Counted from the first letter of the stretch, positions 1,452 through 43,302 are shown. The stretch is DNA of 64,000 bases from Promethearchaeota archaeon (GCA_029838195.1 JALGVJ010000008.1:32001-96000); one strand, 5' to 3'. The notes: generated from the letters alone by a model not told the origin. Numbers and translations: made by a program.

Positions 1452-1588
1452 CTCCCAAATATAAATTTTTCATTTCTTTTACGTTTCTAATTTTAACTCA
1501 TGAGTAAAGCAAGAGGGAATTCTTTTTTTACAAAAGAAACATTAGATACTTCTGAAAGTGCTTCTCAATTAGATGTTAAAAAAGAATT

Positions 1589-2428
1589 TTATAAGAACCT
1601 AGTTATATATTCCATGCTTTTTTCTAAAGTCGTGGCACTGAAGAGTTCCACGATTATTGCCCCAGTATAATTGTAAACTTTCATGATATTGAAAATTTCT
1701 TCAAAGTTCACTTTTCCAGTTCCTAATTGAGGATGGTTATCCGTATTTTTATCCGCATTATCAACAAGATGAACATTTCTAATTTTATCATGGAATTTAT
1801 TCCATAAACTATTAGGATCTCCATTATTTGTCCATAGATGAGAGGTGTCATAGGTAAAAAATAAATCAGTACGATTTAATCTTACGAAGAACTCTTCAAT
1901 CTCTTCTATTTTCAAAAAAAATCCGGCAACTTTTGGCATGTTTTCGATACACGTGGTAATTCCTAAATCTTTGATTTCATCTAATAGTTTATCCACAGAA
2001 TTAAGCAATATCTGCTCATGCTTTTCTTTAAAAGGAGGAATGGGAAAATCTGCGGGACCAGGATGAATTGTAAATACTTTAGCACCAATTTCAGCACAAA
2101 TCCTGGCATTTTCAATATATGCATCCACCGTTGCCCGTGAAATCCATTCATTAAAGGAACATAGTGAGACATCCATGAAATTTCCGTGAATTTGTTTTTC
2201 AACCGAATATGAATCGCATACCTCAATAAAAGCTTTTCTCTCTTTTTTTTCCGTTATTTTAGGAGGTTCAAGGATAATTTCACAGGTAGCTAAATTCCAT
2301 TTTTCAGTAAACTCTAAAGCAGATTTGGTGGCTTGTAATAATAGTTCATTCAAATTTTTATAATTACCCTTCACTCCGTGATTAACAAGATATCCTAATG
2401 AGCTAATCCCTAATTTCATGTATTTCAT
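1589..2428 (-). CDS. Sugar phosphate isomerase/epimerase (xylose isomerase-like TIM barrel)
   Basis: TIHPG, CIENMP, YDTSH, VHLVDN, HPQLGTGKVNF and IIVE motifs. Confidence 0.85.
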   Translation of the reverse strand: MKYMKLGISSLGYLVNHGVKGNYKNLNELLLQATKSALEFTEKWNLATCEIILEPPKITEKKERKAFIEVCDSYSVEKQIHGNFMDVSLCSFNEWISRATVDAYIENARICAEIGAKVFTIHPGPADFPIPPFKEKHEQILLNSVDKLLDEIKDLGITTCIENMPKVAGFFLKIEEIEEFFVRLNRTDLFFTYDTSHLWTNNGDPNSLWNKFHDKIRNVHLVDNADKNTDNHPQLGTGKVNFEEIFNIMKVYNYTGAIIVELFSATTLEKSMEYITRFL

Positions 2429-2618
2429 TAATTTTTTATTGTATTAGAGGTTGATGTTAATGGTAAGTCATTCATTTCTTTATATAATTCTTCGAAGACT
2501 TTTTTCAAAAGATTCAAAAAAAAATATTTATTTAGCATGATAATTGATCAATTTCAATGAATTCATGAGAACATCATTATCATTTTAATATTAAAAAAAA
2601 CCATAGTAAATTAATATC

Positions 2619-3755
2619 ATGATACGACCCTTAAAAATTGGCTTGGTTGGAAACGGCCTTAATGCAACCGAACATCGCAGTGAATTAGAATCCCATCCCC
2701 TCCTTAATAATCGAGCGAAAATTATCGCTGGTTTTGATCCAGATCCCGAAGCTCGTGAACGATTGAGTAAAATGGAGGGTGTCAAGGTTGCATCTTCTTT
2801 TGAAGAATTTCTTAGCACGCCTAACATGGAGGCAATTATCATTTCAAGCCCGCCGCAATATCATGCAGAACAAGCCGTAGCTGCATTAGAGGCAGGATTT
2901 CATGTATTTTCCGAAATTCCCATGGCATTAAATAAAAAAGATATTGAAAAAATTATTGATGCTGAAAATGCTTCTGGAAAAGTATATCAATTAGGCGAAA
3001 ATTATTGCTTTTTCCCCGAAGTACTTTATGCGGGTCATTTGGCCTCATCTGGCAAGCTAGGTCCCGTTGTTTATGCTGAAGCAGAGTATTTACATGATGT
3101 TACGTATCGATGGAGGAAAGGATTTCATGGAGATGTGAATACGCCTAGAATTGACTCGTGGTATCAATTATTTGATCCCATGATGTATGCCCATTCAATT
3201 GGTCCCGCACAAGCTGCAATGGGAGGAATAGACAATCCCATGCCTTTTGTAGAAGTTGTAAGCTTCGCAAATGATAATGGAGGTTACCATGGAAAACCTA
3301 TTTGCAGTCCGGCAAAAGCTTTTCAAGTAGCATTATTCAAGACTGAAAAAGAAGCTATTGCAAAATGTGCCAACGCCTACGTGTTTGCAAGAGAGCCCAC
3401 CCGAATCATCATACAAGTTACGGGTGAATTGGGGACCTATGAATGTTATGAATTAAGTCGACCTGGGAGATTGTTTTTAGCGGATGACCACGTGATCACC
3501 CGCAGCCGTCATCGAAAAGGCAAAACCAAGAAAATTGACGAGGAGCAATTATCTGATGTCATTCCTATAATCAAAGGGCTGTATTGGGGAGCAAATGCGC
3601 GAATCTTGCATGATTGGTTAGAAGCCATTGAAAAAAATAAAATTCCTAAATTGCACGCTAAAATTGGAGCCAATTTTTGCATGGCAGGCATCGCAGCCTC
3701 GGAATCTGCACGTAAAGGCGGAAAACTCGTGAAAATTAAAACATTTACCGACTAA
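2619..3755 (+). CDS. Gfo/Idh/MocA family oxidoreductase
   Basis: KIGLVGNG Rossmann start, SSPPQYHAEQAVAALEAG.HVFSEIPMA, and GENY. Confidence 0.88.
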   Translation: MIRPLKIGLVGNGLNATEHRSELESHPLLNNRAKIIAGFDPDPEARERLSKMEGVKVASSFEEFLSTPNMEAIIISSPPQYHAEQAVAALEAGFHVFSEIPMALNKKDIEKIIDAENASGKVYQLGENYCFFPEVLYAGHLASSGKLGPVVYAEAEYLHDVTYRWRKGFHGDVNTPRIDSWYQLFDPMMYAHSIGPAQAAMGGIDNPMPFVEVVSFANDNGGYHGKPICSPAKAFQVALFKTEKEAIAKCANAYVFAREPTRIIIQVTGELGTYECYELSRPGRLFLADDHVITRSRHRKGKTKKIDEEQLSDVIPIIKGLYWGANARILHDWLEAIEKNKIPKLHAKIGANFCMAGIAASESARKGGKLVKIKTFTD

Positions 3756-40188: not shown

Positions 40189-41905
40189 ATGCCGAGTCAG
40201 TGTAAATTCGTGTTCGTGACGGGTGGTGTAATGAGTGGTATAGGTAAAGGAGTTGCTACGGCCAGTCTGGGAAAGATCCTTCAATTCCGTGGTTTTAACG
40301 TTTCAATCGTTAAAATTGACCCTTATCTTAACGTGGACCCCGGCACGCTTAATCCAATAGAACATGGTGAATGTTTTATCACGGAAGATGTATGGGATTT
40401 TAAACCAGTTCCCGAATCAGATGAAAAGGTTTATCGAATATCGGAAATTGACCAAGATTTCGGTACATTCCGTAATGCAATTCGCATGATGAGGTAAACA
40501 CGAAAGATTTCTTGGTATTGATATTCACCCTTCCCATAACATTACTTCAGGCCAAATATACCTTGCAACCATTCTCAGAGAGAGAAAGGGAAAATTTCTT
40601 GGAAAAACAGTCCAAATAATTCCACATTGCACGAATATGATAAAGGAGCGCTTATTAAGCATAGCAGAAAAAGAAGGACTTGAAGTTTTATTGGTGGAAT
40701 GCGGGGGAACGGTAGGCGACTTGGAATCCGGGATTTTCCTTGAAGCTTTTAGACAATTAAAATTAGAACTTCCAAAAAACAACACGGCTTTTGTACATGT
40801 CACGCTTGTTCCCTATTCCACGGTGATTGGTCAGCAAAAATCCAAACCGACGCAACATTCGGTAAAAATGCTTCAGAGTGCTGGTTTGCAACCCGATATT
40901 TTGATTGGACGGAGCGAAAAACCCTTAGAAGAGGATATACGGAAAAAATTATCTTTATTCACGAACGTTCCATTGAAGGCAGTCATTTCCAATCCCGATT
41001 TGGATTGCGTCTATGAACTACCCTTATTATTTGAAGAACAATCGATTGGAGATTATTTGTGTGAAATATTGGACTTAAAAGCAAAATTAGTTTCGTTTAA
41101 TGAGGTTACTAATTTTTCAGAATGGAAAAAAACGGTTGATAAATTTAAAAATGCCAAGAACAAAATTAGGATTGCGATGCCAGGAAAATATTTTAACATT
41201 ACGGATTCATATATTTCGATCAATGAAGCCTTAGAGCATGCCAGCATTCATCAAGGATTCACAACTGATTTAAAAATGATAAATATTGATGATAATACCA
41301 ATATTGAGGAAGAGGTAAAAGATTGCGATGGAATAGTTCTTACTCCGGGATTTGGCAGGAGAGCCGTTGAAGGAATGATCAAGAGCGCTGAAATTGCCAT
41401 GGAAAAAAAGATACCCTTTTTGGGGATATGTTTTGGTGCCCAGTTATTTTATGTAGCCTTTTGTAGAAAATATTTAGGTTTAAAAGGTGCTAATTCCACT
41501 GAAATTAACCCCAACACGCCCTATCCTGTTGTTGATTTATTAGAAAGCCAGAAAAACGTGAATGAAAAGGGAGGGACCATGAGATTAGGAGGTTTAAGAG
41601 TTATTATCGAAGAAAATACCATACTCCATGAAGCTTATAAAAAGAAAGAGATAATAGAGCGATTTCGACATCGTTATCACCTCATACCTCAAGGTCATTC
41701 GAAAGAAAAAGGTCTTATCGTCTCAAGCTGGGATGAGGAAAAAAAAATCATAAACAGCATAGAATTGGATAGAAAACTCCATGATTTCATGGTTGGAACG
41801 CAGTTTCATCCGGAATTCAAGTCCCGTCCCTTTCGTGCAAGTCCTATTTATTCTGCTTTTATCAAGGCTTGCATTCAATATAAACAAAAGAGGCAACCTT
41901 CTTAA
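40189..41905 (+). CDS. pyrG: CTP synthase in two exons (40189-40468 and 40500-41905), 561 aa after removal of a 31-nt intron
   Basis: [25 protein letters not shown], junction [41 protein letters not shown] (catalytic Cys), RHRY and QFHPEF. The exon lengths sum to 280+1406=1686 nt, or 562 codons including the stop. Confidence 0.93.
40469..40499 (+). other. Candidate BHB-type mRNA intron (31 nt) in pyrG
   Basis: Sequence TCCGTAATGCAATTCGCATGATGAGGTAAAC. Removing it restores the frame and the Tyr codon, and both junctions sit after the 2nd nt of each 3-nt bulge of a BHB fold. Confidence 0.85.
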
Positions 41906-42168: not shown

Positions 42169-43302
42169 ATGTTGTACAAGGACGAGCGTCCCGCAATATT
42201 AATGTTAAAAGACGGGCGTTATTTTGAGGGCATTGGATTTGGAGCTACTAAAACCGTGACAGGAGAACTTGTTTTTACAACTATTACTGGAGCGGGCTAC
42301 AACGAGACACTTACCGATCCTTCTTACTGGGGGCAAATTGTTGTCATGACTCATCCTTTAGTAGGAAATTATGGAGTCCCACCGTGGGAAAAGGATGAGC
42401 ATGGTATTACCAAATATTTTGAATCAGATTCGATTAAGGTAAGCGGATTTGTAGTGAATGAATGTTGTAAGATTCCCAGTCATTATGAAAGCGTGAAAAC
42501 ATTGGATGAGTTTTTACAAGAACAAGACGTGCCCGGCATTGAATGGATTGATACGAGAGCGATTACAAAAATTTTACGAGAAGAAGGGGTGCAAGTCGGA
42601 CTATTATCGGTCATGGATGAAGGAGAAACACCCGATTTAAACCATCTTAAAGAGATTGTTAGTAAGGCTAAAGATCCTAATTTAAGAGAGTTAGCAAGGG
42701 AAGTTTGCACGCCAGAAGTTAAAACATTCACCCCTACTAATCCCATGGGAAAGGTTGTTGTAATAGATCTGGGCGTGAAATTAAACATCCTCCGTAATTT
42801 ATTAAAAAGGGGATTAGAGGTCATTTTAGTCCCGTATGATTATTCACATGAGCAAATAATGGCGTTCAATCCTAATGGCGTGTTAATTTCTAATGGCCCA
42901 GGTGATCCAAAAATCTATACTGCTACAATAGACACCTGCAGAAAGTTAATGGATAATAATATCCCCATGTTCGGAATCTGTTTAGGAAATCAAATAATTG
43001 GATTAGCTGCCGGAGGAACTTCTTATAAATTAAAATATGGACACCGGGGAGGTAATAAAACCGTAATTAATCTTCAAACAAAACAGTGCTATATTACCTC
43101 TCAAAATCACGGCTTCTGCGTGCGAGATTTTGAAAAAGGAGGCTTTATTGAATTTTTAAAAAATATTGATGATAATTCCAACGAAGGGATAATCCACGAG
43201 GAAAAACCCATTCTTGCCGTTCAATTTCATCCCGAAGCGTCTCCAGGCCCTTTAGATTCTCTCTACTTGTTTGATAAATTCATGGAATTAATGAAATTAT
43301 AA
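42169..43302 (+). CDS. carA: Carbamoyl-phosphate synthase small subunit
   Basis: GYNETLTDPSY, SNGPGDP, GICLG, GHRGGN, SQNHG and QFHPEASPGP. Confidence 0.96.
   Translation: MLYKDERPAILMLKDGRYFEGIGFGATKTVTGELVFTTITGAGYNETLTDPSYWGQIVVMTHPLVGNYGVPPWEKDEHGITKYFESDSIKVSGFVVNECCKIPSHYESVKTLDEFLQEQDVPGIEWIDTRAITKILREEGVQVGLLSVMDEGETPDLNHLKEIVSKAKDPNLRELAREVCTPEVKTFTPTNPMGKVVVIDLGVKLNILRNLLKRGLEVILVPYDYSHEQIMAFNPNGVLISNGPGDPKIYTATIDTCRKLMDNNIPMFGICLGNQIIGLAAGGTSYKLKYGHRGGNKTVINLQTKQCYITSQNHGFCVRDFEKGGFIEFLKNIDDNSNEGIIHEEKPILAVQFHPEASPGPLDSLYLFDKFMELMKL

Follow-up and report, generated by a model that had tools for sequence, protein, structure and literature searches.

Why is the only cytidine triphosphate (CTP) synthase gene of an archaeon, pyrG, broken into two open reading frames (ORFs)? 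The question is raised by a stretch of 64,000 nucleotides (nt) from a Promethearchaeota archaeon (GCA_029838195.1, JALGVJ010000008.1:32001-96000), here called the window, in which positions are counted unless another locus is named. The two ORFs lie on its plus strand at 40189-40497 (102 aa) and 40637-41905 (422 aa). An earlier interpretation made without database searches, which we refer to as the sequence-only reading, had pointed out this break and proposed that an RNA intron causes it. We followed up this proposal computationally, and conclude that positions 40469-40499 are very probably an archaeal bulge-helix-bulge (BHB, or tRNA-type) intron within the pyrG coding sequence, which would be excised by the splicing endonuclease EndA, with the exons joined by the ligase RtcB.

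The interrupted gene and its restored frame

Deletion of the 31 nt at 40469-40499 by script yields a single frame of 561 aa that retains both glutamine-amidotransferase motifs, GICFGAQ and QFHPEF, unbroken. The joined frame also regains the Tyr of the GxYERF motif, whose codon (U|AC) spans the junction. This Tyr is invariant, being found in 53/53 distinct intronless homologues, and moving the deletion by one base in either direction places His or Phe at the junction instead. Exon 1 is accordingly drawn at 40189-40468 on the plus strand (93 codons and base one of the Tyr triplet; 92-83% identity to relatives), and exon 2 at 40500-41905, also plus (the other two bases of that triplet, 467 codons and the stop). 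Because the match to the Pfam domain CTP_synth_N is divided between the two exons, with exon 1 matching profile positions 1-62 and exon 2 matching positions 74-265 from its very first residue, the break falls inside one domain. A GATase match is also present in exon 2. Both ORFs, and the 561-aa frame with its catalytic motifs that results from removing the insert, agree with what the sequence-only reading had described.

The insert shifts the frame, and the frame of exon 1 reaches a TAA at 40495-40497. Unspliced pyrG mRNA can thus only yield a fragment of 102 aa, and splicing would therefore be obligatory for CTP synthesis. The earlier proposal had named a second, intact pyrG as a finding that would speak against it, and no such copy was found in the genome (4.5 Mb in 94 contigs, 96.6% complete, 7.9% contamination), where pyrG is single copy. 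The host is an Asgard archaeon of Lokiarchaeia type. Its closest proteins carry the source names Promethearchaeota, Lokiarchaeota and Promethearchaeia metagenome-assembled genomes (MAGs), in line with the probable Asgard host suggested before (taxon names are given here as in the sources).

Two further observations concern the neighbourhood and the exon. Downstream of pyrG on the same strand lies an ORF for carA, the small chain of carbamoyl-phosphate synthase (42169-43302, plus strand; the syntenic gene has PF00988 in loci L073 and L075), and this gene order is kept in both intron-bearing and intronless relatives. Relative to the Pfam profile, the CTP synthase of the family carries about 16 inserted residues before DQDFGTYERF (40396-40452, in exon 1), where the profile match ends at position 62, and some genera have 6-7 additional residues at the same site.

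Geometry, occurrence and covariation of the insert

The RNA around the insert can be arranged as a BHB, all parts of which lie on the plus strand. The two exons pair with each other in a distal 7-bp helix, ACCAAGA (40451-40457) with TCTTGGT (40510-40516), which appears in both the minimum free energy (MFE) fold and the RNAalifold consensus. Next to it is the 5-bp outer helix h, formed by TTTCG of exon 1 (40458-40462) and CGAAA of exon 2 (40501-40505); pair counts (86% of alignment cells paired, with only G-U changes or a terminal mismatch) and RNAalifold agree with this helix. The central 4-bp helix then joins GTAC of exon 1 (40463-40466) to GTAA of the intron (40494-40497) by three Watson-Crick pairs and one G.A, and is flanked by two 3-nt bulges, ATT on the 5′ side (40467-40469) and ACA on the 3′ side (40498-40500). 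The rest of the intron (40470-40493) forms the inner hairpin h′ of 9 bp, in which 40470-40478 pair with 40484-40493, A40492 is bulged and 40479-40483 are the loop; its core is ATGC/GCAT. These elements had been listed in the sequence-only reading, and each can be read in the sequence. With two 3-nt bulges around GUAC/GUAA and helices h and h′ on either side, the structure corresponds to the BHB definition in a relaxed form.

The geometry makes a prediction about the ends of the intron. In the canonical tRNA case, the 4-bp helix is closed by the first two bases of the anticodon (34 and 35) and splicing takes place at 37/38 (PMC4090602), and because of this geometry EndA is expected to cut after the second base of each bulge. 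Such cuts would fall at 40468/40469 and 40499/40500, and they coincide with the junction defined by protein homology, as noted earlier, and with a natural 31-nt indel described below. When the boundaries and exons were held fixed and the 31 nt were shuffled, only 0.015% of 200,000 shuffles reached at least 3/4 central and at least 8/9 inner pairs. The match between BHB geometry and the homology-defined boundaries is significant.

We searched for the insert in relatives, using exon 2 against 40 relatives and exon 1 against 135 genomes of the family. Most of the searched relatives have an uninterrupted pyrG frame of about 560 aa. In eight genomes the gene is broken at the same residue: the present one and another of its genus (G000 and G001, g1), all four of genus g4 (G004, G016, G023, G048), one of g10 (G010) and one of the five of g6 (G051). 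These represent the present species and seven other species-level genomes in four genera of one family, and in 8/8 the insert is exactly 31 nt long and at the identical codon position. It also occurs in two MAGs from NCBI whose protein is 95% identical (GCA_054386595.1 and GCA_054386875.1), and in six metagenome contigs from the Joint Genome Institute (JGI), which were retrieved with a degenerate exon pattern that left the intron unconstrained. No interruption of exon 1 was found outside family f1, among 15 genomes of other families in the same order that had a match. In genus g11 of this collection, 13/54 genomes (including G011, G020, G058, G060 and G064) have no pyrG match to either the exon-1 or the exon-2 query; several of them are 97-99% complete.

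The ten distinct intron-bearing sequences, all with the insert at the same length and site, align without gaps, with the outer helix in columns 18-22/61-65, the central helix in 23-26/54-57, the inner helix in 30-38/44-53, and two 3-nt bulges. Standard pairs fill 87% of the BHB cells, a share that falls to 29-41% if the 3′ strands are slid along by 1-3 columns. In nine of the pairs both partners have changed, and 0/500 shuffles reach the observed values. Most of this variation is in the inner helix, where 8/9 pairs covary and 93% of cells are paired, with arms as different as AUGC/GCAU, AACCAUAC/GUAUGGUU, GGGUUC/GAACCC and AUUCAUAU/AUAUGAAU. Covariation in the central helix is seen once, in metagenome locus L089, which has GCAC/GUGA versus GUAC/GUAA elsewhere; this U-A to C-G exchange combines a synonymous GGU-to-GGC change in the exon with an A-to-G change in the intron. 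RNAalifold, which has no knowledge of the BHB, recovered the outer, inner and distal helices and left the central region open. The compensatory pairing at the same site in relatives, which had been suggested as a check, is therefore present in four genera.

The exon strands are constrained as well. In the intron-bearing alleles the codons of the motif are nearly fixed (GAC 10/10, UUC 9/10, GGU 9/10, ACA 10/10, UAC 10/10 and GAA 10/10), versus GAU 37/GAC 16, UUU 41/UUC 12 and UAU 45/UAC 8 at the equivalent codons of the intronless alleles (n=53).

We also looked for such motifs with home-made scanners across the window. A permissive version gave hundreds of chance matches. A strict version matched mainly at gene boundaries and failed to pick up the pyrG intron owing to a mismatch inside the hairpin, and was dropped as unspecific. 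A group I or group II intron, or another catalogued RNA family, was rejected: Rfam gave no match up to E = 1 in 40300-40700, and 31 nt is too short for a ribozyme.

Several observations weigh against the BHB interpretation. The single-sequence MFE is -19.0 kcal/mol, no better than that of shuffled sequences (z = -1.21). The MFE structure includes the exon helices and the hairpin and pairs the central region differently. The earlier statement that the RNA folds independently into a BHB is therefore not significant by folding energy, and thermodynamics alone neither supports nor refutes the motif. A conserved G.A, found as the first pair of the central helix in 10/10 sequences, replaces the fourth standard pair, so that the motif is relaxed and not canonical. 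Because the ten sequences are relatives of one another, the shuffle counts overstate their independence; more robust indicators are the slid controls and how many distinct pair types occur. The potential to form the outer helix is partly intrinsic to the coding sequence, since 23/53 intronless alleles already have at least 4/5 outer pairs, a property that may explain why the intron settled at this site in pyrG. Finally, no full-length pyrG protein of this species was found at 90% identity or above in a collection of 5.8 billion proteins, which holds only truncated calls of 422-462 aa; this absence is expected if only DNA was assembled, and is no evidence either way.

Evolutionary history, competing explanations and the splicing machinery

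The distribution of the intron on a protein tree of 61 pyrG sequences (from a quick search, with partial rows for some loci) is patchy, and its well-supported branches require the state to have changed at least four times. Sister pairs with and without the intron include G051 and G054, and the g1 clade and the intronless locus L075. The closest comparison is between L089 (intron; about 2133-2222, reverse strand) and L096 (no intron; JGI Ga0299915_10001287, 1501-3204), which have 89-92% DNA identity through the gene and its flanking genes. At the intron site they differ by exactly 31 nt, ...GGCACAU[31]ACGAACG... versus ...GGGACAU ACGAGCG..., and the edges of this natural indel fall at the cut sites that the bulges predict. 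In L089, about 1.5 kb of additional DNA separates the upstream enoyl-CoA hydratase gene from pyrG. Because hairpin and loop sequences are shared across genera (CAUAC...GUAUG arms and NNYUC loops), one origin followed by several losses is favoured. These sequence patterns favour an intron that is old within one Lokiarchaeia family and that was lost precisely several times, regain being less likely.

Seven genomes in genus g11 have an exon-1 match that is longer by 27-30 nt and includes in-frame stops. The additional 30 nt separate SGI from GKG in the glycine-rich nucleotide-binding loop and are in frame but stop-containing (L061:234-305, L062:231-302, L065:234-305 and L067:234-305 on the plus strand; L063, L064 and L066:702-773 on the minus strand); the homologous site in the window, at about 40240-40245, is intronless. 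The insert can be folded with a central helix GGCA/UGCU, bulges UAA and AUG, a hairpin of 8 bp and an outer helix of only 1-2 bp. Across the seven sequences 90% of cells pair, versus 27-46% when slid, and four pairs covary, including a C-G to U-A change in the central helix. These features fit a second BHB-like intron in pyrG, with a weak outer helix.

Several other explanations of the broken frame were considered. Translational recoding could in principle produce the full-length protein from unspliced mRNA, either by a hairpin-driven bypass like that of phage T4 gene 60 or by a +1 shift near the TAA. A stable hairpin with an in-frame stop behind it (TAA, 40495-40497) does resemble recoding signals, and shifting by +1 at AGG-U-AAA would bring ribosomes into the frame of exon 2. 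However, bypass requires matching take-off and landing codons, and no such pair is conserved: ACA...ACA occurs in this species alone and would land the hop out of frame, and the 3′ bulge of other lineages reads AUA, AAA or UAA. The +1 shift, in turn, would interrupt the invariant GxYERF with some ten unconserved residues, and its Tyr would be lost. Nor does recoding need covariation in a 4-bp central helix or exon pairing with fixed 3-nt bulges, and close relatives lack exactly the 31 nt. We therefore regard recoding as very improbable.

Slightly less probable still is that pyrG is simply a broken or split gene, either a pseudogene or a source of two polypeptides, with a structured insert that is never spliced. 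Gene callers do annotate two ORFs (102 aa and 422-462 aa) in every assembly, as the sequence-only reading had anticipated when it warned of mislabelling, and 4/4 members of the protein cluster of this pyrG are truncated calls of 422-462 aa. However, the callers disagree about the start of the second piece (422, 454 or 462 aa), the break lies within the single domain CTP_synth_N, and this is the sole pyrG of the genome. The break has moreover been kept, with compensatory RNA changes, across four genera. Selection on the protein also contradicts decay. Compared with the 95%-identical strain, the rate of synonymous substitution (dS) is 0.35 and that of nonsynonymous substitution (dN) 0.023, giving dN/dS = 0.066 over the two exons, and for exon 1 alone the proportions of synonymous (pS) and nonsynonymous (pN) differences are 0.30 and 0.03. 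Compared with other genera, synonymous sites are saturated and pN is 0.12-0.16. Thus, pyrG is under strong purifying selection and is not decaying, contrary to the relaxed selection that had been named as a refuting possibility.

An artefact of assembly or sequencing, in which the 31 nt would be missing from the real DNA, was considered since the MAG has an estimated contamination of 7.9%; nothing was found in its favour, and it is refuted by the presence of the insert in the two independent NCBI assemblies, in species representatives of GTDB and in the JGI contigs, and by intron sequences that have diverged while their structure is conserved.

The BHB intron would depend on two enzymes, and the genome encodes both the splicing endonuclease and the RtcB ligase. 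The endonuclease catalytic domain PF01974 has three matches (L069:1459-2067 on the minus strand, L070:1201-1800, and L071). L069 encodes 202 aa with ...VVYKKG...HSHFIVH...RKKFV..., the Tyr/His/Lys context of a catalytic (alpha) subunit; it is closest to the alpha subunit of Aeropyrum pernix (3p1z_B), and also resembles those of Sulfolobus tokodaii and Pyrobaculum aerophilum, and its alignment keeps the K-P-R of the crenarchaeal-specific loop. L070 (199 aa) has no His and fits an EndA beta subunit. The third match, L071:1492-1974 (minus strand, contig C53 of G000), is an extra beta gene in degraded form, 82% identical to L070, with an in-frame TAA and about 35 C-terminal residues missing; it may represent a pseudogene or the DNA of a contaminating strain. 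RtcB is found at L072 (553 bits). Asgard EndA is reported to be an (alpha-beta)2 enzyme with an L1 loop, a type linked to broad specificity that accepts relaxed motifs (PMC5829648).

Given the anatomy, the covariation, the coinciding boundaries, the purifying selection and these enzyme genes, we infer cleavage and ligation in vivo, in the following way. Exon 1 and exon 2 of the pre-mRNA would pair through TTTCG/CGAAA and the distal 7-bp helix, and the last paired bases of exon 1, GUAC, would pair with GUAA near the 3′ end of the intron. With the remainder of the intron folded as a hairpin, two 3-nt bulges would be set four base pairs apart, and an (alpha-beta)2 EndA would cut after the second base of each. 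Ligation by RtcB would then create the U|AC Tyr codon of GxYERF and a message for the 561-aa CTP synthase. Comparison with relatives shows the pyrG insert to be conserved and under selection, and it almost certainly must be removed from the mRNA; the comparative evidence backs the earlier view of a non-spliceosomal mRNA intron in a core metabolic gene of an Asgard archaeon, in which splicing itself would be the predicted step.

Relation to known introns and significance

The closest known system is the intron in the cbf5 pre-mRNA of Crenarchaeota, which was reportedly described by Watanabe (2002) and Yoshinari (2006). Like that intron, the one in pyrG is a short BHB intron in coding sequence that interrupts a catalytically important motif, breaks the frame (as cbf5 introns often do) and leads to mis-annotation, in a host with hetero-oligomeric EndA and with lineage-specific precise losses. 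Its removal likewise appears to be needed for a functional protein, as indicated by the frame shift, the TAA, the split domain and the purifying selection. The cbf5 introns are 16-44 bp long, lie in the codon of a catalytic residue and have been lost in some lineages, and replacement by a copy of the spliced mRNA has been proposed for the precise losses (Yokobori 2009, PMC2738675). On the other hand, cbf5 encodes an RNA-modification enzyme (pseudouridine synthase) and its intron is found in Desulfurococcales and Sulfolobales, whereas pyrG encodes an enzyme of core nucleotide metabolism and its intron is found in mesophilic, AT-rich genomes of Lokiarchaeia/Promethearchaeota, with a conserved G.A in the central helix. 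Splicing of cbf5 was demonstrated by reverse transcription PCR and in vitro cleavage, whereas for pyrG it is predicted from comparative evidence.

A second BHB intron in an mRNA is that in the 5′ untranslated region (UTR) of Haloferax volcanii HVO_1309, a substrate of the tRNA splicing endonuclease that was confirmed in vitro; apart from this one, the 2020 study that described it lists a BHB intron in mRNA for cbf5 alone (PMC7714728). Unlike the intron in pyrG, it lies in an untranslated leader, its host has a homodimeric EndA, and its removal alters the level of expression and not the reading frame. Within the literature searched, tRNA-type splicing in archaeal coding sequence is thus documented only for cbf5, with one more mRNA case in a 5′ UTR (PMC7714728, PMC2738675). 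The sequence-only reading knew of no described pyrG case; we found no paper in this literature that joins CTP synthase with BHB introns and none on BHB introns in Asgard protein genes, and a 2026 preprint on Asgard tRNA introns mentions neither mRNA nor pyrG (bioRxiv 10.64898/2026.10.13.758758).

BHB introns, both canonical and non-canonical, are abundant in Asgard tRNA genes (PMC4090602; bioRxiv 10.64898/2026.10.13.758758). The pyrG intron resembles those of pre-tRNAs in having a 4-bp helix, half of it contributed by the exon, between two 3-nt bulges, and in the enzymes predicted to act on it. It differs in that its host RNA is an mRNA, so that the exon half also has to encode DQDFGTYERF, and pairing is achieved through synonymous codons.

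In eukaryotes, HAC1 and XBP1 mRNAs undergo a non-spliceosomal, frame-changing excision with joining by an RtcB-type or tRNA ligase; the endonuclease is Ire1, its substrate is a pair of stem-loops, and the reaction is a regulated stress switch. The likeness to the splicing proposed for pyrG lies in an endonuclease that removes a short piece of mRNA, the shifted frame and the subsequent ligation, whereas Ire1 is not a Sen/EndA enzyme, paired stem-loops are not a BHB, and the reaction is a regulated switch. A bolder idea is that pyrG splicing is a counterpart of HAC1/XBP1, that is, a rate-limiting, regulated gate on CTP synthase and on the pyrG-carA pyrimidine cluster, and that the intron is one of many Asgard mRNA mini-introns gained and precisely lost in conserved motifs. 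We consider this doubtful.

If the pyrG insert is spliced as proposed, a gene of core metabolism in Asgard archaea, which among prokaryotes are the closest relatives of eukaryotes, would depend on EndA and RtcB to be readable, and the same gene would have a second BHB-like intron elsewhere in a sister genus, with precise gain or loss between close relatives. Such genes are annotated as fragments or pseudogenes, and metabolic reconstructions from MAGs would be distorted as a result. The system would make testable how protein-coding introns originate, persist and are lost without a spliceosome, and whether their splicing is used for control.

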